Notes: generated from the letters alone by a model not told the origin. A stretch of DNA of 64,000 nt from Actinomycetes bacterium (GCA_021846515.1 JAJZWU010000009.1:1587-65586), one strand, 5' to 3'. Counted from the stretch's first letter, positions 22,889-56,520 are shown. Made by a program: numbers and translations.

Positions 22889-25159
22889 TCACCGAGGAGT
22901 CAGTGCAGCATCTCGCACTGTAGCAGCAAAATCTATAGCCCTCGACTCCAGGTTGGAATGAGGGAACTGAGCCTTTGCAATGACTTTGGCACCTTTCTGC
23001 TCGAATGCCTTTGCCAACTCGTCAACCACATTCCTGGGAGAAATACCATAGGTGCAAAATACCGCTACACGTTTACCGCCAAGCCTGGGCAACCCCTCCA
23101 TCCATGCTCTGGTAGTCTTGGCCGGCTTTATTCCGACAAACACAAACCCCTCCACCCAGGTACCAAGTACGATTAGATCTGCCCATGCAATCTCTGCAAG
23201 CCCGACCCTTGAGATAGGTAGGAACTTGACTGACGCTCCCCTGCCCTTTAGGGAGCCCGCAATAACAGAACCTGCCTTTTCGGTGTGACCGGTAAGAGAG
23301 TCATATACGACCAGTACACGCTTGGCGCTTCGCTCTTGGGGCATTACAGGCGCTCCTGTGCCGCCCTCCAAGCCACCTACCTCTGTGTCACCCAACCCCA
23401 CAGAGGATTTATTCGATTCTGTCTTCAATGGTCGAGACGGCTTAGATCTTAAAATTGCCTCAGCTGCACGCTTGCCCTGTGACATGGCTTCTACCACTGT
23501 GGACGGCCCTATCAGCGCATCGCCTGCCACCCAGATCCTATCACGCACTGCAAGCGAGGCCGACACTAAACCAACTTCCCTGTTTATAGAAAGGGTACCT
23601 ACTGGATTGGAGTTACAAAAAGCCGATGCATCGTTGTGAAGAATTCCACTTGCAACCCACCGCCTGTCAGGCATGCCCTTTGCAGCCTTGCGTACAGGGG
23701 TGCCGGGCAGGAACTTGGTAAGCTCCTGATCTAGCCTGTAACCCATTGCCATTACTACCAGATCAACCTCTACCGTACGCTTCTTATCTTTCAGCACCTT
23801 TGGAAGCTTGGTTCTGTCCTTCTGAATGGTGGAAGCCAATACTGCCCTCTTCACCCTGCCTCCCTCTCCCTGGAGTTCTACCAGCGTGCTGGAGAAGTTT
23901 GCCACTACACCCTCAGATTCAGCCTCGGCCAGCTCATCGGGTCTCACCAGCGCAAACTTCCTGTCCAGCCAATCGACACAGGTAGCATTCGCTGCTCCCA
24001 AACGCATGGCGGAACGGGCTACATCCATAGCAGTATTGCCTGCACCAAGTACGAGTACTCTAGGCCCCTTGGAAGACTTCCCCGCAACTCCTGCCAGTCC
24101 GACTTCCTCTATACCCTCTCTTGCAGCCAGGGCATCTTTGGCGCGCTTCAAAAACCAGGTTGCATCCACTATCCCGTCAAGGTCGGCTCCGGGAACCGGA
24201 AGCCTAATAGGAATGCTTGCGCCATGACACATTATTACGGCATCCATCTCCTTGAGCAACCTATCCATATCGCCATCCTTCACCTCCACGCCCAACCTGG
24301 CCTCCACCCCGGCGGCCCTGAGAGTCTCTACAGGCCTCATAGCCACTTCGTCGGGCAGAGTGAAGTCGGGTATTCCCCATCTGGGCAATCCGCCGGCAAT
24401 ATCATCCTTTTCATAAAGAGTCACCGAGGCTCCTGCCTGCACCAGAGTAGACGCTGCTGCAATTCCGGCCGGTCCCGCACCGACAACCGCGACAGACAAG
24501 CCCTCACCATCGTTCGATACGCGCTGCAGGGGAGGTACGGGCTCATTGTCGGTAATAAACCTCTCTATGAGACCTACAGCCACCGGCCTCTCTCCCGCAA
24601 GTGACCATGTACAGGATCCTTCACACTGAGCTGCCTGGTCGCAGACCCGTGAACATATATCGGGCAAAAAGGAGGTGTTGCGCAATATTGAGTGTGCACC
24701 GGGGAGGTCACTGTCACGAACAGCTCGCATAAACCCCGGAATATCGTTGTGCGCAGGACAACCCCTCATGCAGGTAGGATCGGGGCAGTCCAGACAGCGT
24801 TCCGCCTCTTTACGGGCAGCTTCAAACGACTCTATTCCCTTACGTATCTCCTCGTTGTTGCCGAGCACTGAATCGAGGTGCAGCTCCTTACGCTCCACTC
24901 TCTCACCTGCCAGCACCGGGCCGTCGATCACTATAGCGGAAAACGGGCAGGTGCGCTCACACTGCCTGCAACCCACGCAGAGACTGTCGTCACCCTTGGC
25001 GATCCAAAGGTCAGTATTCATGGTAAGGGCACCCTGGGGGCACCTGATTACGCATTCCTGGCATCCGGCACAGCGCTCTACTAATACGTGTATAGATGGC
25101 GTTGCCACTTCAGAGCCGCCAACCACCTTGTATGCCTGCCTCTCTTCTGTTACGGTCAT
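22889..25159 (-). CDS. Triple-fusion oxidoreductase: 2x[4Fe-4S] ferredoxin + glutamate-synthase-small-subunit-like (GltD/NfnB/SudA-like) flavoenzyme + flavodoxin-like domain
   Basis: Ferredoxin motifs CAGCQECVIRCP and CVGCRQCERTCP. GltD-like part: RCLDCPDPTCMRGCPAHNDIP, CSRVCDQAAQCEGSC, VAVVGAGPAGIAAA and VLVLGAGNTAMD. C-terminal flavodoxin motif KRVLVVYDSLTGHTEK. Confidence 0.8.
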   Translation of the reverse strand: MTVTEERQAYKVVGGSEVATPSIHVLVERCAGCQECVIRCPQGALTMNTDLWIAKGDDSLCVGCRQCERTCPFSAIVIDGPVLAGERVERKELHLDSVLGNNEEIRKGIESFEAARKEAERCLDCPDPTCMRGCPAHNDIPGFMRAVRDSDLPGAHSILRNTSFLPDICSRVCDQAAQCEGSCTWSLAGERPVAVGLIERFITDNEPVPPLQRVSNDGEGLSVAVVGAGPAGIAAASTLVQAGASVTLYEKDDIAGGLPRWGIPDFTLPDEVAMRPVETLRAAGVEARLGVEVKDGDMDRLLKEMDAVIMCHGASIPIRLPVPGADLDGIVDATWFLKRAKDALAAREGIEEVGLAGVAGKSSKGPRVLVLGAGNTAMDVARSAMRLGAANATCVDWLDRKFALVRPDELAEAESEGVVANFSSTLVELQGEGGRVKRAVLASTIQKDRTKLPKVLKDKKRTVEVDLVVMAMGYRLDQELTKFLPGTPVRKAAKGMPDRRWVASGILHNDASAFCNSNPVGTLSINREVGLVSASLAVRDRIWVAGDALIGPSTVVEAMSQGKRAAEAILRSKPSRPLKTESNKSSVGLGDTEVGGLEGGTGAPVMPQERSAKRVLVVYDSLTGHTEKAGSVIAGSLKGRGASVKFLPISRVGLAEIAWADLIVLGTWVEGFVFVGIKPAKTTRAWMEGLPRLGGKRVAVFCTYGISPRNVVDELAKAFEQKGAKVIAKAQFPHSNLESRAIDFAATVRDAALTPR

Positions 25160-25190
25160 ATCTCAAAATCTCCTTTCTTTTTCCGTTCCG

Positions 25191-27113
25191 TCACGACGCA
25201 GCATGCATCGGGATATAAAGAAGTAACATACTCATACCAATGGCCAGGACCATAAATATCGACATCATTTTGGCTACTGCCGGGCGATCGGTCAACATCG
25301 CAAGATCCCGCTTAAAGATCCTCTTCATGACCCACAACGATAGAGCCAGGCCTATAGCCATCACTCCAAGCTGAATGCCGACTATCTGCCACCCAATATA
25401 TGAAGGCAGGTTGTCAAAGCTCTTCACATGCTGGGCAAATATAGTCATATTATACCAACCGGTATGCACTCCAAGCTCGCCCAGCACCGAACTCACCACC
25501 CTGGGGGTATGCTTGATAAACCTGGGCAACTGCCTGGCAAGATAATCTGCGGCAGTAACAGGTATAAGAGCATAGGCAAACGGTACGTACCACTGCTTCC
25601 ACGAGGAGGCAATCTTTTTCTTGGCAGCCTGTGGATGCAACCCCGTGTTGGCGCCTGGGCTTCCTGTCCTGTCGCCAGCCTGCCCCAGGTCGGCCAGACC
25701 ATCACCTCCCAGGCTGTCACCACTTGGGCATTCGCGTACCAGCGTACCGATTCCTCCTCCCGTCATGCCCGAGATAGATTCTGAACCTGCTCCGGCACCG
25801 GCGTAGGCTAATGCAGCCGATGAGGTGTTTATCAGGAGTCCTTCACTCACCTCGCCGTATGCCGTAGTGTGTCCGTTAAGATTATGTGCTTCGGATCCGC
25901 TGTAAGCTGCATTCACACGCTGCCTGCGCGCTGCCAGCGCCCGTATGGCCAGCCCCGCACCGACTACCACCAGTGCAAAGACTGCTATAAGCCCTAAGTA
26001 GTCTATAGGATTAGGGTAGGGGATGCCGGTATACTTGGTAAGCCAGGCATCTGCGGTGGCATATATATTGAGAGCATTTACCTGCTGAAAGACGACCAGG
26101 CCGATCAGTAGTGCTATGCCCAAAGCAATGTCTACCCGGCGCTTGGATGGAGCAACCACCGATGTCAGTGGCTTTTGGATAAACAGGCCGACGTTGTCGT
26201 AAGGACAGGCCTTGTAACATTCGCTGCACAGACCGCATAGCAGGTTCGAATCGGCACTTCCGGGCCACGTATACCACGGGCAACCAAATCCCTTCTCGTT
26301 GCCCCTCATGCAGTCCTTTGTCGGACACGATATGCACTTCTCTCGATCTCTGGTGCGAAATCCTGCCACAGACCCCATAGCCCCGACAGTTCCTATAAGG
26401 GAAGAAAGTGGACAGATGTAACGGCAGAATGTCCTGCGCTCAAAGAGGAGAAATACCATGAGGGCAGAGCCGACAATACCCATTACCATGAAGCTGGTGT
26501 CATACGCGGGACCTGGAGCAGCTATATTGAAGAACTCCTCTATCCAGGTAAGGACTATGAATGTGGCTACGGATATGAGTAGCCCGTATCCCGCCCACTT
26601 CTCAGGAAGCTTCCAACCCAGACCCAATGCCTTCTGGGTACGCTTGAAGAATGCCTTGCGCTGTATCCACTCGCCAAAGCCGCCAAAGGGACACATCGAG
26701 CACCAGGCTCTTCCCACGACAACCATCATCACAAATACCAGGCAGAACCAGACGTACCAGGTAATGGCGGCTCCGAAACTACGCCCTGGGAGCAGACTGG
26801 GGAAAACCAGGCCCAAAACGATCACCGCCCAGAAAATTACCTGATTGGGCAGTATGAGGAAGAATTGAAACTTTCTCGACTGCATCGCCCTAGCCAGTAG
26901 CTTGCCTACAATAGGAATGCGCGTAACGTCTATGGGGGGGTCAGTCTCTGCAAACCTTTTTCTTGCAGCTCTTCTCTCCGGAGGACGCAAACGCACCCTT
27001 ATCGGAGCCGGACCTGGAGATGGTTGTACCGTAGAATTCTCCTCCGGTGACCAATTCTCTATGGATACAGTATCCTCTGCTCTTCTTGTCTGTGTTTCCT
27101 CTGTTACAGTCAC
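25191..27113 (-). CDS. Polytopic membrane Fe-S protein (NapH/NosR/RdhC-like polyferredoxin)
   Basis: Multiple TM helices. Motifs WCSMCPFGG and FCRYICPLSS, then CISCPTKDC...GCPWY and CGLCSECYKACP. It also has a long Gly/Ser/Ala-rich loop and extra C-terminal TM helices. GTG start. Confidence 0.75.
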   Translation of the reverse strand: MTVTEETQTRRAEDTVSIENWSPEENSTVQPSPGPAPIRVRLRPPERRAARKRFAETDPPIDVTRIPIVGKLLARAMQSRKFQFFLILPNQVIFWAVIVLGLVFPSLLPGRSFGAAITWYVWFCLVFVMMVVVGRAWCSMCPFGGFGEWIQRKAFFKRTQKALGLGWKLPEKWAGYGLLISVATFIVLTWIEEFFNIAAPGPAYDTSFMVMGIVGSALMVFLLFERRTFCRYICPLSSLIGTVGAMGSVAGFRTRDREKCISCPTKDCMRGNEKGFGCPWYTWPGSADSNLLCGLCSECYKACPYDNVGLFIQKPLTSVVAPSKRRVDIALGIALLIGLVVFQQVNALNIYATADAWLTKYTGIPYPNPIDYLGLIAVFALVVVGAGLAIRALAARRQRVNAAYSGSEAHNLNGHTTAYGEVSEGLLINTSSAALAYAGAGAGSESISGMTGGGIGTLVRECPSGDSLGGDGLADLGQAGDRTGSPGANTGLHPQAAKKKIASSWKQWYVPFAYALIPVTAADYLARQLPRFIKHTPRVVSSVLGELGVHTGWYNMTIFAQHVKSFDNLPSYIGWQIVGIQLGVMAIGLALSLWVMKRIFKRDLAMLTDRPAVAKMMSIFMVLAIGMSMLLLYIPMHAAS

Positions 27114-27249
27114 TCTCGACTCCTTTCAAGCCAATTCCCAGTGCAGCACCAAACTTATTTACTTAAAGGGGTGCCCAACCGAGTCCGTTCCCTATACTTA
27201 TATATTGTTATTGTGCGCCTACGTGAAGTCGATATACAGGGTATTAGCT

Positions 27250-27278
27250 CCCTTACGTAGTGACTAATTACGTAGGGG
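27250..27278. promoter_or_regulatory. Imperfect 10-bp inverted repeat immediately 3' of HK1 and upstream of the Fe-S module
   Basis: CCCTTACGTA-gtgactaat-TACGTAGGGG. It is part of a cluster of TACGTA hexamers. Confidence 0.35.
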
Positions 27279-27279
27279 A

Positions 27280-28410
27280 CTACCGCAATACGTACGGTAC
27301 GTATACACGTACGGTACATCCACGACCTGGAGAGGAATGTACGTATAGGTTTCCGCCTATGAGCTGGGCACGCTCGTGCATACCGAGCATACCAAAATGC
27401 TCGCCGTGATACACTCCTACGACCCCCTGGTGATTGCTACCGCCAATCAGAAAGTCGTCCGATACAGGGAATCCAATCCCGTCATCCGCCACCTCCAGCT
27501 CTACGCCGGATCCACCAAATCGAAGCCTGACATAGCCATGACGGGCACGGGAGTGCCGCTGTACATTTGACAACGCCTCCTGAGCGATACGGTATAGAGC
27601 CAACTCGATGTCGTCGGGAAGATGTAATGGCTCGCTACCCACCTCTTCAAACTCTACGTCAAGGATTTCGTTGGACACATCTTCTGCCAATCTCGACAAC
27701 GCCACCTCCAAGCCCAAATCCTGCAATGCCGGAGGGCGAAGTCCCTTGACCACCTCACGCAGTCTCCTTACCGACTCATCCACGAGTTGGCGCGATTGAA
27801 TAAATGCCTCTTTTGCGTCCAAGGGGATCTCAGATGACTTGGCAACTGAAGATATTTTTCTACCCAGCTGTATCAAGGTCTGCAATGTCTCATCATGTAA
27901 CTCTCTGGCTATACGGCTACGCTCCTCTTCAAGGCTGGAGAGTACAGTTTGGGCATATGCCTCGACTTTTTCCCTGGCAGCGCTGTAGGCATCGTTCAGG
28001 TCGTGTTCACGTTGCATCCTCCAGCCAGCAAACATTCCTACCGCAACAACCACACCTATCATGACTATATCGCCCGACATATCAAGAAATTCGCCGTGAC
28101 TATAGTCTGTTACGAAATCGGGCAGCCATAGGATGGTCACCCAAGCAGTAAGCAGAGTCGAACCAACGAATCCAAATCTTAATGCTCCATACAGTATCGG
28201 CAGTATAAGTAAGGCAGGTATCACGCTATCGGGAAAGATATGAAACGAGTGACTGTCGAGAAACATTTGAGCACCCACTACCGCTGCACATACCCCAGTT
28301 ACCAGCCAAAACCTCCAATTCCTGAGTGGAGCAAGCGCCATACCCCTAGATATGAGCATCTCCCGCCTCCTCCGTCTATCTATAGCTCTTACCCCCACCT
28401 GCCTTATCAT
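27280..28410 (-). CDS. Sensor histidine kinase, HisKA_3/NarX-DesK type, membrane-embedded sensor (HK1)
   Basis: N-terminal TM bundle, H-box RIARELHDETLQ, HATPase_c N-box (AQEALSNVQRHS) and G-box (DDGIGF). Confidence 0.88.
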   Translation of the reverse strand: MIRQVGVRAIDRRRRREMLISRGMALAPLRNWRFWLVTGVCAAVVGAQMFLDSHSFHIFPDSVIPALLILPILYGALRFGFVGSTLLTAWVTILWLPDFVTDYSHGEFLDMSGDIVMIGVVVAVGMFAGWRMQREHDLNDAYSAAREKVEAYAQTVLSSLEEERSRIARELHDETLQTLIQLGRKISSVAKSSEIPLDAKEAFIQSRQLVDESVRRLREVVKGLRPPALQDLGLEVALSRLAEDVSNEILDVEFEEVGSEPLHLPDDIELALYRIAQEALSNVQRHSRARHGYVRLRFGGSGVELEVADDGIGFPVSDDFLIGGSNHQGVVGVYHGEHFGMLGMHERAQLIGGNLYVHSSPGRGCTVRVYVPYVLR

Positions 28411-29168
28411 TCACCCGAGGGCGATGTACCAGTGGGCGTAGACGAGAATGTTGTGACAGGAACGCTGGATGCATCAGGGCTGGAGGCATTCTGGGGCGGA
28501 TTTGATGAGCCAACCAATCCCCTCTCCATTGCAAGCACAGATAATTTGGTTCTTGAGTTAACTCCGAGTTTGTCAAATATATGGCGTATATGGGTTTCCA
28601 CAGTACGCCTCGATATTTCCAATCTGTCAGCTATCTCCTTATTCGGCAGCCCCTCCACTACCATTTTTACCACCTCCATCTCGCGATCAGACAGGGTGGA
28701 TGGCTGCCCGCTCGGCTCCGGGGGAAGCTCGTCTGTGCCCTCCCTGAGTCCCATTGCAAGCGATCTATCTACCACTACCGCCCCCGACCTCAAGGCATAT
28801 ACTGCATTTATAATCTCTTCATCCGGAGCGCTTTTCAGCAAATAGCCAGAGACTCCCGCAGAAAGAGCTGACCTGAGATAATCGCTATCTCCATACGCAG
28901 ACAGGATAAGCAATCTCATCCGTGGAAACTCTTTTGACAGCCTCCTCGAAAACTCTATGCCGTTCTCACCCGGCAAACGGACATCGAGCACCATAATGTC
29001 GGGCTGGCTGTCTGTCAGCAGTTCGTAGGCATCCTTCGTATTGCTGGCCTCTCCTATCACCACGACATCGCCGCTCTCCTCAAGAATCTCCCTTGTACCT
29101 TGACGGACTACCGGATGATCGTCCACCAAAATTACGCTAAGAGGATGATGTTCCACAAGCATATCCAC
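28407..29168 (-). CDS. NarL/LuxR-family response regulator (RR1)
   Basis: Receiver domain (ILVDDHPVVR...MVLDVRLPGENG...GYLLKS) and LuxR HTH (LSDREMEVVKMVVEGLPNKEIADRLEISRRTVETH). There is a Ser/Pro/Thr-rich C-terminal tail. It overlaps HK1 by 4 nt. Confidence 0.9.
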   Translation of the reverse strand: MDMLVEHHPLSVILVDDHPVVRQGTREILEESGDVVVIGEASNTKDAYELLTDSQPDIMVLDVRLPGENGIEFSRRLSKEFPRMRLLILSAYGDSDYLRSALSAGVSGYLLKSAPDEEIINAVYALRSGAVVVDRSLAMGLREGTDELPPEPSGQPSTLSDREMEVVKMVVEGLPNKEIADRLEISRRTVETHIRHIFDKLGVNSRTKLSVLAMERGLVGSSNPPQNASSPDASSVPVTTFSSTPTGTSPSGE

Positions 29169-29384: not shown

Positions 29385-30200
29385 GTGGAAGGATCTAAAG
29401 ACTCAGCAGATCGGGAGGTTGGAATAGGGAGTCGTCCATCCAAGCGAGCAGGGCAAGGCGGAGAGACCAGCCGGAGTGCCCGCACTACGACGGCAACGCA
29501 GCAATACGAAGCTTCAGGGACGAGGCGCCCGAGATCCCTATCCGCTGAGTCTCCTATTACAATATTACTTGCAGACGACCATGCCGTAGTGAGAGAAGGT
29601 ATCCGGCAAATTATCGAAAGAAGCCCGGACATGGAGGTTGTTGGGGAAGCCGGAGATGGCGAGCAGGCAGTGGAAATTGCTCGAAGTACTATGCCGGAGG
29701 TGGCATTGCTGGACATAAAACTGCCTGGCATTACCGGGATTGATGCTGCACAGCAGATCACCAAAATATCACCCAATACCAAGGTATTGATATTAAGCGC
29801 TTACGCAGAAAGAGCTTACGTAGAAGCCGCCATGGATGCAGGGGTACACGGCTACCTGCTGAAGAGCGCCCCCGGTAGGGTGTTGCTCGATTCAATAAGA
29901 GCGGTACGCTCAGGTGCTATGGTATTGGACAGTTCGTTGCCGAGAGGACCAATAGGCCACTCTACGGAGTCTCTATCTGAGCAGTCGGAGGCTCCAACCC
30001 TTACTCCTCGTGAAATAGAAATAGTCTCCCTGGTTACAAAGGGATACCGCAACAAACAAATTGCAATTGAACTGGGAGTATCCCTGCGTACCGTGGAGAG
30101 CCACCTTGAGCATGTATTCGACAAGGTCGGAAGCACGTCGCGTACCGAGCTGTCGATGTACGCCGTAGCGCATGGGTGGGTGGACCCCTCCACTGATTAG
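29385..30200 (+). CDS. NarL/LuxR-family response regulator (RR2) with a ~60-aa N-terminal extension
   Basis: Receiver domain (ILLADDHAVVR...ALLDIKLPGITG...GYLLKS) and LuxR HTH (LTPREIEIVSLVTKGYRNKQIAIELGVSLRTVESH). GTG start, preceded by an extended -10 element. Confidence 0.88.
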   Translation: MEGSKDSADREVGIGSRPSKRAGQGGETSRSARTTTATQQYEASGTRRPRSLSAESPITILLADDHAVVREGIRQIIERSPDMEVVGEAGDGEQAVEIARSTMPEVALLDIKLPGITGIDAAQQITKISPNTKVLILSAYAERAYVEAAMDAGVHGYLLKSAPGRVLLDSIRAVRSGAMVLDSSLPRGPIGHSTESLSEQSEAPTLTPREIEIVSLVTKGYRNKQIAIELGVSLRTVESHLEHVFDKVGSTSRTELSMYAVAHGWVDPSTD

Positions 30201-30227
30201 CCGGAGACCGGCTATGGTGACCGACTA

Positions 30228-31823
30228 ATGGCTACCAACCCCATACATCACACAGCTGACGACACCGGCAACATACTGTGGCCGCCTCCAATTGGTAGCA
30301 GCCGTTTCTGGATAGTGCAGGTACTTGTCGTGGGTGTGGCAATAATTCAAGAGTTGCTGTGGCTACCTGGTATCAAGGGATGGGGTCTGAATATACCTCC
30401 ATTCATAGCCGTAGGGCTGTTCGGCGTACCTGTTCTCTATGCTGCATTGAATTATGGATTCGCGGCATCCATGGCAACTGCCACTATAGCTACGGGAATA
30501 ACAGCCATGACGGTAGCAATAAACGGAATACTTGGGATGTTGCCGACACTATACGCTTGGGCATATGCAGTAGAACTGGCATCCCTACTGGTTGTAGCAG
30601 CCTCCGTCGGCTCACGATTCGAGCGTGAAACCCTGGCAAGAATTGAGATAGAAAGAGCTGCCGCTGCTGCTACGGCTGCCGAACTGCGTTACCATTCGCT
30701 CTTCGAAGCAAGCGCGGCTCCCGTATTGCTGGTAGATAGCAACGGCGTCATACGGGAAGCAAATGAATCAGCACGAAAGATATTCTCTCCCAGCACCATG
30801 TTTGGAAAGACGCTTGAAGAAGTCACGGGCAATAAGGTATCACTAACACTTCTAAATCGCAATCGGCAATTATCTGCTCCTACACATCTGGTTACGCCTG
30901 AGGGTACGCAGTATATGCTCCTGGCTACAACAGTGCCGCACGACATTACGTCAGAAATATCAGGAGAATCCAGCAACGAACAACAACGCGAGATGATACA
31001 GGTTATCTTTCAGGATGTAACCGAAGAAGTGGAGCAGCAACGGCGTACAGAGGCATATGCAGAGCATGTTTTGCGAGCGCAGGAAGAGGAGAGAAGAAGG
31101 ATAGCGCGTGAACTCCACGACGAACCGGTTCAGTCACTGGTACATCTATGCCATAGGATAGATGCAGTAATGGATTCGACTGATCTGCCCGAAAATACAC
31201 TCGTAGAATTGGAATCTACGCGCACATTGACGGAAAATACAATTACCGAACTTCGCAATATCGCGACCGCACTGCGACCTCCAGCCCTGGACGACCTTGG
31301 CCTAATGGCATCGCTACGCAATCTCGTAGCAGAGTACCGTGAACGCAACACGATCAAGATATGGCTTAAAACTGCCGGTACAATCCCAAAACTCGACAAA
31401 TGGCAAGAACTGACGATCTACAGAGTCGCTCAAGAAGCACTTTCAAACGTTGAACGGCATTCAGGGGCTACGCAGGTGACAGTGTCGCTAAAGAGCACGC
31501 CATCCATGCTCAGGCTGGTAGTTGCGGATAACGGCCATGGGTTTACAGGTGCGGTTTTTGATGGTTCCATGATCGCCGATCAAATGATACAGAACCGTAC
31601 AGGCACTTACTCCAAACGAAATCGATTAAGAGGCTCCAATGCCACAGCCAGCAAAGCTACAGTCGGCAATGCTGTAACCGGTGATATATCGTCCAATGAT
31701 CGCGCCCATCTCGGCCTATTGGGTATGACCGAACGCGCTCAACTGGTCGGCGCCCATCTCGGAGTAGTATCACATCCAGGCCAAGGTACACTGGTAAGCC
31801 TTAGACTGAGGTATGATCATTAA
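30228..31823 (+). CDS. Sensor histidine kinase, HisKA_3 type, with TM sensor + PAS-like domain (HK2)
   Basis: The TM bundle contains PVLYAALNYGF, paralogous to PILYGALRFGF in HK1. PAS-like segment LRYHSLFEASAAPVLLVD. H-box RIARELHDEPVQ. HATPase_c with a ~45-aa insertion before LGLLGMTERA. Confidence 0.88.
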   Translation: MATNPIHHTADDTGNILWPPPIGSSRFWIVQVLVVGVAIIQELLWLPGIKGWGLNIPPFIAVGLFGVPVLYAALNYGFAASMATATIATGITAMTVAINGILGMLPTLYAWAYAVELASLLVVAASVGSRFERETLARIEIERAAAAATAAELRYHSLFEASAAPVLLVDSNGVIREANESARKIFSPSTMFGKTLEEVTGNKVSLTLLNRNRQLSAPTHLVTPEGTQYMLLATTVPHDITSEISGESSNEQQREMIQVIFQDVTEEVEQQRRTEAYAEHVLRAQEEERRRIARELHDEPVQSLVHLCHRIDAVMDSTDLPENTLVELESTRTLTENTITELRNIATALRPPALDDLGLMASLRNLVAEYRERNTIKIWLKTAGTIPKLDKWQELTIYRVAQEALSNVERHSGATQVTVSLKSTPSMLRLVVADNGHGFTGAVFDGSMIADQMIQNRTGTYSKRNRLRGSNATASKATVGNAVTGDISSNDRAHLGLLGMTERAQLVGAHLGVVSHPGQGTLVSLRLRYDH

Positions 31824-34103: not shown

Positions 34104-34246
34104 ACACTGAAAGGTATACCTGATACACCCATACTTGCAAGTCGTCCGCCGTCCTATTGTTACGCGCCTGCCATATATACCCTGTATTCCCAATTGCACT
34201 TCGAGATATTGTGCCGGCCATACTACTGCTTGCGTCAATAATATAC

Positions 34247-35368
34247 ATGAGGTATCATCTAAGCATGACTACAGTTCCCCCAAATAATAAGAATAACGAA
34301 CTTAACGATAGGGCTTCTCTCATTGCCTCACTGACGGCATTCTCGCTGCAGCACATCTTACGTATAATTATAGAGTCATCTCAGAATGGTGAGCTTTACG
34401 TCGGTGGCACAGACCAGGATGGTAGAGCTTGGATTGATAATGGCAAGATAACCGGCTTCTCTGTCAGTACTCTGGACAACTCAGTAACCTCTGCCGAAAA
34501 AGCCCTCTTTGAGATGGCACTGTTCGACAACGCTTGGGCATACTTTACCCTGGGGCGCGCTGCTCCCACAAATACCTGTTCAGAGGAGCTGAAGGGTATC
34601 GTAGATCGTATAGGTCCGCAACTGGAAGAGTACCACTCTCTTATTAAAAAGATGCCGCTCAATGCAACTGTACGGCTGAATCAGGATTCTCCTTCCGACT
34701 CTGTGCAAATGTCTTCAGCGCAGTGGAAAGTCCTTACCAAGATAGGATCAGGAACCGGACAACAGGTCCGTGACATAATATCCAGCACAGATGTATCGCA
34801 AGTAGATACCCTGAAGATACTGGACCAGCTTGTAGCGGCACAACTTATTGCGGTCGAGAAAGCTGATGAGTCCACATTCCCTAACGCAGCAGCGAATGCG
34901 GCTCCCTCGGGTAACAGCAGCAATGTTGGCAATGCTTCAATAAGCAATCCTGCCGAGACTATTACTGTGTCAACAATACCCTCTACCACAACAATTCCTC
35001 CTGTGGGCTTGCCAACGGCACTTTCAGATGAGACTCCACCGGTATTGGCATCTTTGCCTGCTCCTACACCTGTACCACCTTCGGCTTCAGGAACCTCCGC
35101 AGAAAGCACCCCTACCGATCCCGGATCTATGCCCACATCCACTACGACTACTCCACCTGCTGGCTCTACACCCCTCAGCTCAGTAAACACATCAGAACCG
35201 GATCGTGAGGTAGTAAATGCGCTAAGAGAGACGGTAGACCCTCTCGGTGGGTTCATCCTTGTAACCGATTCACCGGCCAGGTACGACACAAGGCCAGAAC
35301 AGCAATCTATCGATCCCAGTAAATCAAGTGATGCGCAGTTCCCTACTGGGCTTGGAGATATCAGCTAG
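34247..35368 (+). CDS. Hypothetical protein: DUF4388-like N-terminal domain + Pro/Thr/Ser-rich C-terminal half
   Basis: The N-terminus LQHILRIIIESSQNGELYV...GRAWIDNGKITG resembles the DUF4388 (PATAN-like) pattern. Residues ~230-340 are PT/S-rich low complexity. The start is 34247 or 34265. Confidence 0.55.
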   Translation: MRYHLSMTTVPPNNKNNELNDRASLIASLTAFSLQHILRIIIESSQNGELYVGGTDQDGRAWIDNGKITGFSVSTLDNSVTSAEKALFEMALFDNAWAYFTLGRAAPTNTCSEELKGIVDRIGPQLEEYHSLIKKMPLNATVRLNQDSPSDSVQMSSAQWKVLTKIGSGTGQQVRDIISSTDVSQVDTLKILDQLVAAQLIAVEKADESTFPNAAANAAPSGNSSNVGNASISNPAETITVSTIPSTTTIPPVGLPTALSDETPPVLASLPAPTPVPPSASGTSAESTPTDPGSMPTSTTTTPPAGSTPLSSVNTSEPDREVVNALRETVDPLGGFILVTDSPARYDTRPEQQSIDPSKSSDAQFPTGLGDIS

Positions 35369-40806: not shown

Positions 40807-41937
40807 TTATCGAGTAGGCGCACCTCCAACGCTGCCCGCCCCAGATGGGTAGCTGCTGCCGCTGTCGGAAGAGCTGCCCGATCCTGACGGAGCGGCGCCG
40901 GTACCGGAGGGTTGCCCGGTGCCGGAGGGCTTGCCGGTGCCGGAGGGTTGCCCGGTGCCGGAAGAGCTGCCCGATCCTGACGGAGCGGTGCCGGTGCCGG
41001 AGGGTTGCCCGGTGCCGGAGGGTTGTCCCACACCGGAGGGCTTGCCGGTGCCGGAGGGTTGCCCGGTGCCGGAGGGTTGTCCCACACCAGAGGGCTTGCC
41101 GGTGCCAGAGGGTTGACCCACACCAGAGGGCTTGCCGGTGCCGGAGGGTTGACCCACACCAGAGGGCTTGCCGGTGCCGGAGGGTTGCCCCACACCAGAG
41201 GGCTTGCCGGTGCCGGAGGGTTGCCCCACACCAGAGGGCTTGCCAGTGCCGGAGGGAATCTTACCCTGTCCGGGTGTCACCGAAGCACAGAATGTCGTTA
41301 TGCTCTCTCCCGCCTTACCTGCAGCCTCCAAAAGGTTCCTGAACGCAATGTCATTGGCGCTCGTATTACCTTTGGTTGCTACATATGCATGGCATAGCCC
41401 GTAAGCTGCCGCCTTGTTTGCATTTGGTCCAACTGCCTTTGAGTTGTGCGATGTGGCAGTAGTACTGGTAGTGGTCGTTGGTGAACTGGGCTTTCCTGAC
41501 GTAGTATTCGGATTCGGAATCGATATACCGACATGTGACAGAGCGCTGGAAATAGGTGCCTGTATGGATGCCGGCAACGAGCCTGTAGCTGCAGCGGCAC
41601 CTCCACCTACTACCGCAGCAGCAACTATCCCAGATGCCACCTTTGCACTAAGTAATTTAGCTGATAATTTTCCTATCATGGTTTTTCTCCCTATTGTCTT
41701 TCTCCCGAGCCGGGCAATTTCTTTACCTGCCTGGATGTTGGGAACCGCCCGAACGGCTGCAGACATAGCGGATATAGCATGCTCGCGCCCTACCATTTCA
41801 GCAGCTTGCACGGGTGCCTTGGCTGCCCTTGCAAGACTTGCCGTCCTGGCAAGGCCAGGGGGTGCGTCCTCAGGGTGCATGAGGCCATTGAGCAACTTGT
41901 CTATGGTGCTGTCGTCAAGCGATTTCCCAAACATCAC
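40807..41937 (-). CDS. Putative membrane-anchored anti-sigma factor with a C-terminal PSG(T/V)G(K/Q) hexapeptide repeat array
   Basis: It lies immediately downstream of the ECF sigma gene (43-nt gap). It has a cytoplasmic N-terminus, one TM helix ([18 protein letters not shown]), a Cys-containing conserved-looking segment ([10 protein letters not shown]...[19 protein letters not shown]), and then ~18 hexapeptide repeats. Confidence 0.6.
40868..41262. repeat. Nested tandem repeats (18-nt / 36-nt units plus a ~92-nt duplication) inside the anti-sigma gene
   Basis: There are repeated 18-mers such as ggtgccggagggttgccc, ggtgccggagggcttgcc and cacaccagagggcttgcc. The block ggaagagctgcccgatcctgacggagcgg occurs at ~40868 and again at ~40960. 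Confidence 0.9.
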
Positions 41938-47259: not shown

Positions 47260-48276
47260 CTATGCAGCACCTCGATCTGCCGTACCAACACTGACAGCCT
47301 GATGAACGGCGTCTCTACCCAGCAACGGGGTTCCGAGCGCCTCCAGATAGCGGCGTGCACTGGAATCTACCACCAGATCACCTATACTTACAATTACCCC
47401 GCCCAATAAAGAACCGTCCACATCCACCTGAACGTCTACCGGGCAACCTGCGACATCTTCAAGAATACCGGCAAGCATATCAAGTTCATCGGCGCCAAGA
47501 GGCCTGGCAGATCGTACTCTTCCTATGCGCCAACCGCGAATAGCGGACACAAAATCTGCCAGCCACATAAGAGTCGTCGCCATGTCTCTCGGCCTTGACG
47601 ATAACGAATGAACTACTATCCTTACCGTAGCAGAGCTCACCTTCCCATCAAGCAGCTCAAACATGGCACGGCGCCTTGCAAGCAGTGGAATAGACCTGTC
47701 GATAAACGTAAAACCAGGAAACGTATCACTACCAAACAACCTGGCAAGTGCAAGGACTTCTTCCTCGATAGTTGCCAAGACATCAGCATTGTCTACTTCA
47801 TCCAGCACCGCTCTACAGTATCCACCTATGTATTTACGTGCCGCCGAACGAGAGAGGTCCTCTTCCTCTTCTGCGGCAACTCTTGACATCACTATCTCCA
47901 GATGGCCGTAGGAAGCACCGGAACTACCTCCCACCTGCTGGGAAGATATGTCTTGCGAAGATACTTCGTCTATCAAATTAACTACCTCCGCCATCTCGGC
48001 AAAGACTACCGGAAGATCATCTGCCGGTTCTTCCAAGACTGCCCGCTGTATGATCCGTAAGGCATATTTATCCATACGTGACACCAATAAATCGGTCAGT
48101 ATGCTTTTACGTACCAAACTACCAATACCGGAATCGGTAACCACCGCAAACAATGAAGAGTTGGTAAGGATAAACCTGTTGAATGAGCTCAAATCCGATG
48201 CCACCCGGCCAAGCGCTTCATCCGATGATGCAGACTCAACCACTGCATGTACGTATCCTTTTAGGGAGGGGATCAT
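47260..48276 (-). CDS. atpH: F-type ATP synthase delta (OSCP) subunit, elongated (338 aa) with an apparently duplicated N-terminal domain
   Basis: The C-terminus LLGGVIVSIGDLVVDSSARRYLEAL is the delta signature. There are two successive OSCP-N-like helical segments (aa ~5-100 and ~150-250). Confidence 0.85.
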   Translation of the reverse strand: MIPSLKGYVHAVVESASSDEALGRVASDLSSFNRFILTNSSLFAVVTDSGIGSLVRKSILTDLLVSRMDKYALRIIQRAVLEEPADDLPVVFAEMAEVVNLIDEVSSQDISSQQVGGSSGASYGHLEIVMSRVAAEEEEDLSRSAARKYIGGYCRAVLDEVDNADVLATIEEEVLALARLFGSDTFPGFTFIDRSIPLLARRRAMFELLDGKVSSATVRIVVHSLSSRPRDMATTLMWLADFVSAIRGWRIGRVRSARPLGADELDMLAGILEDVAGCPVDVQVDVDGSLLGGVIVSIGDLVVDSSARRYLEALGTPLLGRDAVHQAVSVGTADRGAA

Positions 48277-55028: not shown

Positions 55029-56312
55029 CTATCTGGGTTGCCGGTCGATACACTGCACTAGATACTCCGCTTGAAGAATAACTTCGCGCAACGGCATACC
55101 GGTCTCCGCAGCCACTTTGGCTGCATCCGATTGCTCTATCTTGACTCGGTGGCCTGCCACTTTGGTCCTCACCGGAAAACCCTTGACACTAACGATCATT
55201 TCATCCCTGGCCGATGGCCACCTCTGAACCATGATTCCCCTAACTCCAAGTGTGCCGGTCTCTCTGCGTAATATGTCGCGCAAATAAGCAGCACTACTTG
55301 GATCACATAGAACGCTGGCTACAAACCCCGGGCGACCCTTCTTTGCCACAACAGGCGTCACCCAGGCATCATATGCACCTGCATCCATCAACGACGAGAT
55401 AGCCCAAGCCATAGCTTCTCCGCTTACGTCATCCACATTGGTTTCAATCAACATTGCATCCATGCCACTACCTGCTGTATTTTCTTGATCGCCAGCCGAC
55501 TCACCAACGATTACCTGCAACAAATTTGGCAACTCTTCTATTTCCCTATCGCCAGCCCCATACCCGGATGCAACAATATTCATTGGGGGAATCGGGCCAT
55601 AGGAGTCTACAAGGGTACGTAATATCGCTGCACCGGTAGGCGTAGTCAACTCATAAGGCAATGAGCGCCCATAAACCGGTACTTTTTCCAGTATCCTTAG
55701 CACTGCCGGAGCGGGATTGGGCAAGTGACCATGCGCACCACTAAGTGCACCCCCCAGCCCAAGGGCTACGCCGGAAGAATAGACTTTTGCGGTTCCAAGT
55801 ATCTCCACGGCGACCATTGTACCCACAATGTCTATAATCGCATCGTGACCGCCAACTTCATGAAAGTGTGTACTTCCAATATCACCGGAGTGAACAGTAG
55901 ATTCAGCTTCTGCCAGAATACGAAAACAGGCCAACGACCTCTTTACCACCTTGGGAGACAAGCTTGATGTGGCAATCATATTCACTATATCCGTGTAGCT
56001 GCGCACCGTAACGGGATCGTCAACCGTTACATTAACAGAAGTCGAAGCAATCCCTCCACGCATAACCTTATTGGCCGATAGTTTCCATCCCTTAAATGGC
56101 AATTTCTTAAGCTCTGTCTCTACCTGCCCAATATCTACGCCTGAATCTACCAATCCCCCCAAAAGCATATCTCCCGATACCCCCGAAAAGCAATGCAACC
56201 AAAGTGCCGTTTCGGAAGTGGACGGTGCTTTTCCGGAGTCGGATAGTGCCGTTTCGGAGCCAGACAGTGCCTGGATGGGGTCGGTCTCTGATCGATCGGT
56301 GGACAAGTTCAT
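55029..56312 (-). CDS. larC: LarC-family nickel insertion protein (DUF111)
   Basis: LWLHCFSGVSGDMLLGGLVDSG at the N-domain, and the length and architecture of LarC. It has a ~35-aa N-terminal extension. Confidence 0.85.
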   Translation of the reverse strand: MNLSTDRSETDPIQALSGSETALSDSGKAPSTSETALWLHCFSGVSGDMLLGGLVDSGVDIGQVETELKKLPFKGWKLSANKVMRGGIASTSVNVTVDDPVTVRSYTDIVNMIATSSLSPKVVKRSLACFRILAEAESTVHSGDIGSTHFHEVGGHDAIIDIVGTMVAVEILGTAKVYSSGVALGLGGALSGAHGHLPNPAPAVLRILEKVPVYGRSLPYELTTPTGAAILRTLVDSYGPIPPMNIVASGYGAGDREIEELPNLLQVIVGESAGDQENTAGSGMDAMLIETNVDDVSGEAMAWAISSLMDAGAYDAWVTPVVAKKGRPGFVASVLCDPSSAAYLRDILRRETGTLGVRGIMVQRWPSARDEMIVSVKGFPVRTKVAGHRVKIEQSDAAKVAAETGMPLREVILQAEYLVQCIDRQPR

Positions 56313-56436: not shown

Positions 56437-56520
56437 GGAGGGGTGGCAGAGTGGACGAATGCGAGGCTCTTGAAAAGCCTTGACCCAAAAGGTCCGTGGG
56501 TTCGAATCCCACCCCCTCCG
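56437..56520 (+). tRNA. tRNA-Ser (anticodon UGA)
   Basis: Hand-folded. Acceptor GGAGGGG/CCCCTCC. Anticodon stem AGGCT/AGCCT with loop CTTGAAA. Long variable arm GACC-CAAAA-GGTC. T-arm GTGGG-TTCGAAT-CCCAC. Discriminator G. CCA is not encoded. Confidence 0.92.

Follow-up and report, generated by a model that had tools for sequence, protein, structure and literature searches.

A NapH-like membrane polyferredoxin paired with an NAD(P)H flavoenzyme fusion in Acidimicrobiia and some other Actinomycetota

Membrane polyferredoxins and a two-gene redox locus

Membrane polyferredoxins of the NapH, NosR, RdhC, and CcoG types are widespread, and both the source of their electrons and the route these electrons take through the membrane are unclear. 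Here we analyze a two-gene locus that bears on this question, located in a 64,000-nucleotide (nt) stretch of a metagenome contig from an Actinomycetes bacterium (GCA_021846515.1 JAJZWU010000009.1:1587-65586); this whole stretch is referred to below as the window, and coordinates are counted from its first letter. The first gene (25191..27113, minus strand) encodes a polytopic membrane polyferredoxin of 640 amino acids (aa), here called MEM, with a NapH-like core and an extra C-terminal helix bundle. The second (22889..25159, minus strand) encodes FUS, a cytoplasmic 756-aa fusion of a ferredoxin, a GltD/NfnB-like NAD(P)H flavoenzyme, and a flavodoxin-like domain.

NapH-like proteins have been described as modular electron conduits (PMC8238504), in agreement with what we find among the relatives of MEM, and NapH itself is considered a putative quinone-binding subunit (PMC8238504). 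NosR, NirI, and RdhC (PceC) also contain a membrane polyferredoxin that serves as such a modular conduit (PMC8238504). CcoG (FixG/RdxA) is, like MEM, a membrane protein with Fer4_5 domains and two [4Fe-4S] clusters, and in some relatives of MEM the chain includes copper-related domains; the physiological electron donor of CcoG is unknown (PMC7558416), whereas a candidate donor is encoded directly beside MEM. This survey of NapH-like proteins and this review of CcoG were the only relevant publications in the literature that we searched, which contained no report on the MEM-FUS pair, and searches of NCBIfam and the PDB likewise matched the pair to no characterized complex, as a first-pass annotation made from the nucleotide sequence had supposed.

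We suggest that MEM and FUS are probably, though by no means certainly, two subunits of one membrane-bound complex, an NAD(P)H-fed iron-sulfur (Fe-S) conduit for which menaquinone would be the likeliest electron acceptor. MEM fails the tests for membership in the NapH, NosR, and CcoG families, and FUS fails those for GltD, Nfn, and AegA/YgfT and lacks the partners of these enzymes; the two therefore represent a new type of pair within known superfamilies. What is new is the combination, in a regulated two-gene unit, of a NapH-like conduit that lacks an outside domain with an NAD(P)H flavoenzyme of its own, conserved in Acidimicrobiia and some other Actinomycetota, although the architecture would not shock a specialist in modular redox enzymes. 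The pair offers a minimal case, one membrane protein and one NAD(P)H flavoenzyme, in which the donor side is explicit and testable, and thereby a concrete and tractable answer to where a polyferredoxin of the NapH/CcoG type can obtain electrons. If the pair is an NADPH:menaquinone oxidoreductase, it would open a new way for NADPH to enter respiration in actinobacteria; if the electrons are exported, it would be a new kind of transmembrane reductase.

Architecture and conservation of the two proteins

Two stretches of MEM match Pfam family Fer4_5 (PF12801; E = 2e-11, 44.1 bits against a gathering score of 22), which assigns the protein to the Fer4_5 "NapH-like" superfamily. Its topology was derived from hydropathy, the positive-inside rule, and an AlphaFold2 model (predicted local distance difference test [pLDDT] score of 72.5, predicted template modeling score of 0.76), which together predict about nine transmembrane (TM) helices and a cytoplasmic N terminus. 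The predicted layout consists of four helices with Cys-Pro motifs, a two-cluster segment (residues 260 to 304), two further helices, a variable loop, and a C-terminal bundle. A CX2CP motif (C138, C141, and P142; 26688..26702, minus strand), contained in WCSMCPFGG at residues 137 to 145, lies at the predicted cytoplasmic end of TM2 and aligns with the first CX3CP motif of NapH; both of its cysteines are invariant among 69 aligned sequences, and CxxCP is invariant in the distant superfamily as well. The second Cys-Pro motif, an invariant CX3CP (C230, C234, and P235; 26409..26426, minus strand) within FCRYICPLSS at residues 229 to 238, lies at the predicted cytoplasmic end of TM4 and aligns with the second CX3CP motif of NapH. 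The segment of the 2x[4Fe-4S] type that follows (26202..26336, minus strand) includes CISCPTKDC...GCPWY at residues 260 to 281 and CGLCSECYKACP at residues 293 to 304, and all eight of its cysteines (C260, C263, C268, C278, C293, C296, C299, and C303) are invariant. It is embedded in a loop rich in lysine and arginine (residues 225 to 326), and the Fe-S loops of MEM are for this reason predicted to be cytoplasmic.

Conservation in MEM extends well beyond the cluster motifs. More than 600 homologs were recovered, with 62 to 69% identity over the N-terminal 55 to 60% of the query, and in the 69-sequence alignment all 12 cysteines are invariant together with many helix and loop residues. Invariant residues also occur on predicted outer loops (EEFFNIAGPG, QQVNA, and YPNPxDY), and the C-terminal Met-His tail is invariant or nearly so. 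The Gly/Ser/Ala-rich cytoplasmic loop at residues ~395 to 505 (25599..25931, minus strand; pLDDT below 50) had been noted in the first-pass annotation as a stretch of about 100 aa; it is present, at ~110 aa, but it is no feature of the family, since it is absent or short in most homologs and confined to close relatives of the window's protein. The additional C-terminal TM helices proposed there do form a conserved module (residues ~506 to 640; 25194..25598, minus strand), which consists of three long helices modeled with pLDDT values of 85 to 97 carries conserved columns and a DYxARQLPKFxKH motif, and ends in MHAAS. Distant relatives match this module to the end of the profile.

The resemblance to NapH holds up in a profile-profile comparison. 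With hhalign, residues 138 to 307 of MEM aligned to residues 109 to 274 of Escherichia coli NapH with a probability of 96.3% (E = 2e-9), and both Cys-Pro motifs and both cluster motifs were in register, which together with the two Fer4_5 matches bears out the initial description of MEM as a NapH/NosR-like membrane polyferredoxin. The shared features are the four-helix core, the two membrane-edge Cys-Pro motifs at cytoplasmic helix ends, and the cytoplasmic 2x[4Fe-4S] segment after them. The first motif of MEM, however, is CX2CP rather than CX3CP, and its first cluster motif is CxxCxxxxC...CP rather than CxxCxxCxxxCP; MEM also has about nine helices, five more than NapH, it is accompanied by no NapG, NapA, or nap operon, and its partner is instead a cytoplasmic NAD(P)H flavoenzyme. 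The window contains no nap genes, nor do those homologous loci for which neighbors were annotated or tallied, and MEM is not a NapH ortholog by the NCBIfam models (TIGR02163, 31.7 bits against a cutoff of 213; PRK09477, 23.7 against 234). The nearest NCBIfam models were of the NapH/MauN and CcoG types for MEM and of the GltD/NfnB type for FUS, with all scores far below their cutoffs.

NosR and NirI were rejected because Fer4_5 was the only Pfam match of MEM, no extracytoplasmic FMN-binding domain is present, the N terminus is predicted to be cytoplasmic, and no nos, nir, or apbE genes were found. CcoG/FixG was rejected on the basis of a score of 15.5 bits against the TIGR02745 cutoff of 316.7, the absence of a FixG_C domain, and the absence of cco genes; neither a ccoNOQP nor a ccoHIS context surrounds MEM, in contrast to CcoG. 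As to RdhC, one relative of MEM adjoins RdhA and RdhB, whereas the window contains no rdh genes.

FUS carries three redox modules, and the motifs by which the first-pass annotation had recognized them (CAGCQECVIRCP, CVGCRQCERTCP, RCLDCPDPTCMRGCPAHNDIP, CSRVCDQAAQCEGSC, VAVVGAGPAGIAAA, VLVLGAGNTAMD, and KRVLVVYDSLTGHTEK) are all found in the translation. The N-terminal 2x[4Fe-4S] ferredoxin domain (residues 29 to 75; 24935..25075, minus strand; Pfam Fer4_7) contains C30, C33, C36, C40, C61, C64, C67, and C71, and the GltD/dihydropyrimidine dehydrogenase (DPD)-type N-terminal Fe-S domain (residues 102 to 206; 24542..24856, minus strand; Pfam Fer4_20, 2e-31, 108 bits) contains two [4Fe-4S] sites formed by C122, C125, C130, C134, C169, C173, C179, and C183. 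All 16 of these cysteines, which correspond to four predicted [4Fe-4S] sites, are invariant in an alignment of 61 FUS sequences, and the Fer4_20 domain aligns with NfnB and GltD at their cluster motifs, with cysteine as all eight ligands. The FAD- and NAD(P)H-binding domains follow at residues 222 to 570 (23450..24496, minus strand; Pyr_redox_2 at 222 to 481, 5e-21, 75.8 bits), with an FAD GxGxxG motif and an NAD(P)H GAGNTA motif that are invariant in the same 61 sequences. With both Pfam domains, eight cluster cysteines, and glycine motifs for FAD and NAD(P)H in place, FUS contains a bona fide module of the GltD/NfnB/DPD type, to which a family-specific insert of ~33 aa relative to NfnB has been added within residues 490 to 541, ahead of the last GD motif. 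No signal peptide is present in FUS.

In the C-terminal flavodoxin-like domain (residues 615 to 752; 22904..23317, minus strand), Flavodoxin_1 and Flavodoxin_3 reached 24 to 26 bits at residues 616 to 729, just below the Pfam cutoffs, whereas the other Pfam domains expected by the first-pass annotation were recovered. We nonetheless assign it as flavodoxin-like because it matches TIGR01753 (1e-9) and the PDB flavodoxin 2fz5 (6e-6) and because S621, G624, and T626 of its phosphate loop (SLTGHT) are invariant among the 61 FUS sequences; the AlphaFold2 model of this domain is an alpha/beta fold with a pLDDT of ~90. The triple fusion had been proposed from the window's sequence, and it is genuine and conserved at full length in many species, but the flavodoxin part of it is accessory: six species that keep the pair encode a FUS of only 565 to 602 aa with no flavodoxin domain and no flavodoxin gene nearby. 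The core unit is thus MEM together with ferredoxin-GltD, with the flavodoxin domain as a common accessory.

By both sequence and fold, the nearest relatives of the FUS core are Thermotoga NfnB, Pyrococcus Xfn and NfnI-L, and Azospirillum GltD. The best PDB sequence match was NfnB (4ylf_B, 2.8e-60), and Foldseek returned Xfn and NfnB at 5e-30 and also matched GltD. MEM, by comparison, had no PDB sequence match even at E values of up to 1, and a Foldseek search of its model against the PDB gave nothing below E = 1 and hence no structural template. FUS shares the Fer4_20 and Pyr_redox_2 core of NfnB, Xfn, GltD, and DPD, with ~30 to 40% identity to NfnB, and an N-terminal ferredoxin domain with AegA-type proteins, the ferredoxin-GltD fusions AegA, YgfT, and YgfK. 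It differs from NfnB, GltD, and DPD in the absence of NfnA, GltB, and PreA, in its flavodoxin domain and ~33-aa insert, and in its obligate membrane partner. The individual families were also rejected by score or by context: GltD at 239 bits against 483 (TIGR01317) and 189 against 448 (TIGR01318), with no GltB at any locus examined; NfnAB for want of an NfnA gene (PyrK-like, [2Fe-2S] and FAD) beside the pair at any locus examined; and AegA and YgfT at 210 bits against 1003 and 191 against 1154, respectively.

The distribution of the two genes was examined in a census of one genome per species, which recovered MEM relatives in 389 species; locus tallies refer to the best 80 of these, and neighbors were counted by tblastn because long spurious antisense open reading frames (ORFs) in these high-GC genomes interfered with the clustering of ORFs. 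Nearly all of the 80 loci belong to Acidimicrobiia or to unclassified actinomycete metagenome-assembled genomes (MAGs), with the addition of one Pseudonocardiales MAG and of the cultured iron reducer Aciditerrimonas ferrireducens. FUS lies directly after MEM on the same strand in all 75 loci with room for it downstream, with a gap that ranges from -18 to 196 nt, and the same pairing recurs in 5 further contexts. The pairing is obligate, contrary to the possibility raised in the first-pass annotation that the two genes might never co-occur elsewhere. FUS itself has more than 1,000 homologs, the best 120 of which are almost all 715 to 780 aa long and 52 to 57% identical with a query coverage of at least 94%. 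A second organism from the same metagenome sample (ENA ERZ27237373 k141_244442; locus L092) encodes an Rrf2 regulator of 382 aa, a MEM of 526 aa, and a FUS of 745 aa.

These observations bear on the most deflationary view of the locus, namely, that FUS is an ordinary soluble subunit of GltD, DPD, or Nfn, or else a product of assembly or frameshift error, and that MEM is unrelated to it. The window is a metagenome contig, and pipelines of the Joint Genome Institute label homologs of FUS as "glutamate synthase small chain," as this view would have it. Yet no GltB, PreA, or NfnA partner was found at any locus examined, the scores are far below every equivalog cutoff, and the full-length fusion (~735 aa) is kept in more than 100 clusters and at about 64 species loci with complete FUS genes (711 to 844 aa), which leaves no sign of the assembly or frameshift artifact against which the first-pass annotation had cautioned. 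Together with the 75/75 co-occurrence and with relatives in which a GltD module is inserted in the membrane protein itself (see below), this refutes an incidental or artifactual adjacency, which we regard as extremely improbable. Because both proteins have hundreds of conserved homologs, their features are far beyond chance.

At the nucleotide level, the ORFs, the 31-nt gap between them, and every motif quoted in the first-pass annotation were recovered in the translations. MEM begins with GTG and FUS with ATG, and each start codon is preceded at 6 to 10 nt by a GGAG-type ribosome-binding site. The first six residues of the two proteins are identical, (M/V)-T-V-T-E-E (27090-27113 and 25136-25159, minus strand), which may be coincidence; for MEM, this start is common to close relatives only.

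Fused relatives and the path of electrons

A search of 1.84 billion representative proteins with the MEM profile gave 1,029 matches at E values of 1e-10 or lower and 307 at 1e-30 or lower, many of which cover the profile almost end to end, C-terminal helices included. Added domains among 56 long representatives were Cupredoxin_1 (16), COX2-like (10), YHS (5), cytochrome c554 (3), AhpC/TSA (2), and NosL, cytochrome c, and a heavy-metal-binding domain (HMBD; 1 each). Those at the N terminus stand behind signal peptides and are joined to the core by one extra helix, so that these distant relatives have the layout of NosR. In 4 of the 56 the added domain is a GltD module, inserted between the TM4/CX3CP motif and the ferredoxin segment (P0282, P0294, P0369, and P0374, one of which comes from a Chloroflexota MAG). 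Two of these combine all three parts in one chain: P0282 joins a cupredoxin on the outside and a GltD module on the inside to the membrane core, and P0369 has the same arrangement with AhpC/TSA. One Chloroflexota relative has a cupredoxin-MEM gene followed by a diheme cytochrome c, with a GltD-like gene two genes downstream, all behind a HisKA_3/GerE system. Since a GltD module is inserted in the membrane protein, or a GltD gene lies nearby, in these relatives, the MEM core and a GltD-type flavoenzyme are likely to work as one unit, which lends independent support to the wiring first proposed for the window, from NAD(P)H through FAD and Fe-S clusters to a membrane conduit. In relatives of this kind the core also appears to serve as a link between extracytoplasmic redox proteins and either the cytoplasm or the quinone pool.

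Other relatives stand in their own redox clusters. One in Desulfurispirillum indicum is located in a cluster with a diheme peroxidase and cupredoxins, and one relative lies in a copper-protein cluster. In a Chloroflexi MAG (locus L101, 4124-8088), genes for RdhA and a VcrB-like anchor (RdhB) directly precede a cupredoxin-MEM-like protein, which suggests an RdhC-type role with a copper domain in place of the usual FMN-binding domain.

MEM and FUS can meet because FUS has no signal peptide and the Fe-S loops of MEM are predicted to be cytoplasmic, which places every cofactor site of the two proteins on the cytoplasmic side. In the complex that we propose, FUS would sit at the cytoplasmic face of the membrane, where NAD(P)H would bind at the GltD/NfnB-type FAD site and reduce FAD. 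Electrons would then pass singly through the two GltD-type [4Fe-4S] clusters and the two N-terminal ferredoxin clusters of FUS. At the same face, MEM would receive them at its two [4Fe-4S] clusters and its four-Cys site (CX2CP/CX3CP), and its NapH-like core would then deliver them to the membrane. By analogy with NapH, menaquinone is the most likely immediate acceptor, which would make the pair an NAD(P)H:quinone oxidoreductase; electron flow from NADPH to quinone is downhill. From quinone, or directly, electrons may also reach an acceptor at the outer face, and the flavodoxin-like domain could be an optional extra point of entry or exit. Expression would be set by local redox- or metal-type regulators, here two NarL-type systems and in most relatives a putative Fe-S-type Rrf2 regulator. 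Domain content, conservation, the obligate pairing, the placement of the cofactor motifs in the cytoplasm, and the fusion of the two modules in relatives are shown here, whereas the direction of electron flow, the acceptor, and the signals of the regulators are inferred.

Several points weigh against this proposal. No recognizable quinone-binding motif is present in the pair, MEM is without a solved structural relative in the PDB sequence and Foldseek searches, and the AlphaFold2 models are of moderate quality (pLDDT of ~72). The flavodoxin domain is unexplained by a conduit of this kind. The invariant residues in the outer loops hint at an outward-facing site, which a simple quinone reductase would not need, and the secreted redox domains of the relatives favor delivery beyond the quinone pool.

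The last two points raise the possibility that MEM is a route by which electrons leave FUS for an acceptor beyond the membrane, which could be a metal ion such as Cu(II) or Fe(III) or a secreted redox protein encoded elsewhere. As an NAD(P)H-powered reductase of the outer face, the pair would be an Fe-S analog of NOX/FRE/STEAP or a CcoG-like cupric reductase with its own donor; we consider this unlikely. The signal-peptide-led domains on relatives that match the whole profile, from cupredoxin (16/56), COX2-like (10), and YHS (5) to cytochrome c, AhpC/TSA, NosL, and HMBD, fit this picture, as do the continuous chains of P0282 (with cupredoxin) and P0369 (with AhpC/TSA) and the relatives that adjoin a diheme peroxidase, cupredoxins, or a reductive dehalogenase. 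The conserved outer loops and Met-His tail point the same way, CcoG reduces Cu(II) via two [4Fe-4S] clusters (PMC7558416), one cultured carrier is the Fe(III) reducer A. ferrireducens, and ArsR- and Fur-type genes neighbor the pair at some loci. However, the metal-related fusions are found in distant relatives only, the actinobacterial MEM has no extracytoplasmic domain and no conserved secreted partner nearby, its helices contain no conserved Cys/His pairs for a membrane-bridging cofactor, and it is not a member of the CcoG family. It is correspondingly doubtful that the pair is a heme-free prokaryotic counterpart of NOX/FRE/STEAP with an extracellular acceptor, for example Cu(II) or Fe(III) or else a secreted protein (cupredoxin or peroxidase); if it is, the finding would reveal a long-sought type of physiological donor for CcoG/NosR-like polyferredoxins. 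NOX/FRE/STEAP, like EtfABCX/FixABCX, are analogs in that they link NAD(P)H to quinone or to outside metals via flavin and one-electron centers, but they belong to unrelated families with other cofactors (heme b in the former and electron transfer flavoprotein [ETF] flavins with ETF-QO in the latter), so that the logic is alike and not the ancestry.

A functional analog of EtfABCX/FixABCX would be a bifurcating enzyme, in which the NfnB-like FAD would split the electron pair of NADPH, sending one electron downhill via the Fe-S chain and MEM to menaquinone and the other uphill to the flavodoxin domain or to ferredoxin. The closest solved relatives of the FUS core do include the bifurcating NfnB and NfnI-L, FUS has two one-electron outlets in its Fe-S chain and flavodoxin-like FMN domain, and EtfABCX, in which NADH oxidation is coupled to the reduction of menaquinone and ferredoxin (PMC10734219), provides a precedent. 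We nevertheless judge bifurcation improbable, as the nonbifurcating GltD and DPD are equally close, all eight cluster ligands are cysteines as in GltD, and the flavodoxin domain is missing in the 6 species mentioned above that keep the pair.

The complex could also run in reverse, with MEM as a menaquinol dehydrogenase like NapH and the membrane potential helping to feed electrons to FUS, which would make NADPH or reduced flavodoxin. Modules of the NapGH type are regarded as quinol dehydrogenases (PMC8238504), and the charged residues D523, R527, K531, H535, and R538 in the highly conserved C-terminal bundle of MEM might provide a path for ions, although the sequence itself gives no sign of ion translocation. 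We know of no precedent for a NapH-like pump, and the standard potentials of menaquinone and NADP+ make the reaction uphill by ~250 mV; reverse operation thus seems to us more improbable still than bifurcation.

Regulators, upstream DNA, and genomic surroundings

The family appears as a regulon unit in Acidimicrobiia, a poorly studied but abundant lineage of soil and water, in which the pair is combined with an Rrf2 regulator, a two-component system, or an ArsR regulator. An Rrf2 gene is present at 58 of the 80 loci, usually divergent from MEM at a distance of 55 to 290 bp; a HisKA_3 kinase and/or NarL-type regulator is present at 25 and an ArsR-type gene at 4, while 15 loci have both the Rrf2 and the two-component type and 8, several of them on short contigs, have none of these regulators. 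The pair-linked Rrf2 proteins are ~310 to 380 aa long and combine an Rrf2 domain that carries a C-x6/7-C-x5-C motif with a C-terminal part that is weakly SRPBCC-like (SRPBCC/Polyketide_cyc2), and the closest NCBIfam models, which are generic IscR/SufR/RirA-like ones, scored below cutoffs. This two-domain organization is an unusual architecture for Rrf2 (L034, 899-1927; L092, 7731-8879; and ~45 other loci), and in several genomes two Rrf2 copies flank the pair.

The window contains no Rrf2 gene and has instead two two-component systems next to the pair, both of which had been recognized in the first-pass annotation; the one that is conserved with the pair, however, is not the system directly upstream but the second, which includes a PAS domain. 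Directly 5' of the pair are HK1 (27280..28410, minus strand), a HisKA_3-type histidine kinase that has a membrane domain at its N terminus but, according to Pfam, lacks a PAS domain, and RR1 (28407..29168, minus strand), a NarL/LuxR-type response regulator (Pfam Response_reg and GerE); these are PAS-less paralogs of the conserved system, HK1 being a paralog of HK2. The conserved system (29385-31823) is divergent from the pair and consists of RR2 (29385..30200, plus strand), a NarL/LuxR-type response regulator, and HK2 (30228..31823, plus strand), a membrane-anchored PAS-HisKA_3 histidine kinase, which are orthologs of the regulator and kinase kept with the pair elsewhere; HK2 is 32% identical over its full length to the kinase of locus L002. 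NCBIfam matches of the kinase/regulator pair were generic (NarL/MctSR-like) and below cutoffs. In loci of the two-component type, a single-helix membrane ORF of 77 to 94 aa with a conserved ELAE(L/I)D...L motif lies between the response regulator and MEM (L002, 7949-8182; L006, 6064-6348; L008, 5928-6179); this small ORF has no Pfam match and no counterpart in the window.

The intergenic region upstream of MEM (27114..27279, minus strand) is a candidate for an operator or a promoter. Two direct copies of CTACGTAA occur in it at a 15-bp spacing (27253-27275), along with an inverted TCACGTAG (27219-27226), an arrangement that is kept in L013, the closest relative of the window. ACGTA/TACGT words are 8-fold enriched 5' of MEM genes across the family, and loci of the Rrf2 type have the common sequence GACTTGACGTA(T/G)AGC upstream of MEM; the upstream ACGTA-type repeats are candidate operators. 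A scan for promoter and terminator consensus sequences gave nothing above shuffled expectation, and an Rfam scan of the window identified no known RNA element 5' of the pair. Exact copies of the repeat number only 4 in the 64 kb, and another pair, likewise spaced by 15 bp (CTGCGTAA and CTACGTAA), occurs inside the RR2 coding region (29801-29823, minus strand). The last 13 codons of HK1 (CTVRVYVPYVLR; 27283-27325, minus strand) are made up almost entirely of overlapping GTACGT/TACGTA words, which are also kept in L013, and the putative ACGTA-rich operator region thus appears to extend into the HK1 coding sequence.

Beyond the regulators, the neighbors of the pair encode an acyl-CoA dehydrogenase, an RDD protein, a CvpA-trypsin protein, a GH15 glycosidase, a class II aminoacyl-tRNA synthetase, and an enoyl-CoA hydratase. 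Genes for GltB, a hydrogenase, a dehalogenase, and a nitrate or N2O reductase are all absent from the 8 kb on either side of the pair, which agrees with the original description of the surroundings. Taken as a whole, the window represents core chromosome and contains genes for ATP synthase, ilv functions, tRNA synthetases, and an H+-pyrophosphatase. The only Rfam hit in it is a single tRNA gene (56437-56520), and two ORFs have no Pfam match at E values of 1e-5 or lower (34157-35368, plus strand, 403 aa; 40807-41937, minus strand, 376 aa). The same core region encodes a LarC-type nickel-insertion protein (55029-56312, minus strand) and the membrane H+-pyrophosphatase (59189-61507, plus strand). 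The ORF for the ATP synthase delta subunit (OSCP; 47260-48276, minus strand) is 338 aa long, about twice the usual length, with the OSCP domain restricted to residues 153 to 315, an arrangement suggestive of fusion to a b subunit (b-delta) or of an extended N terminus.

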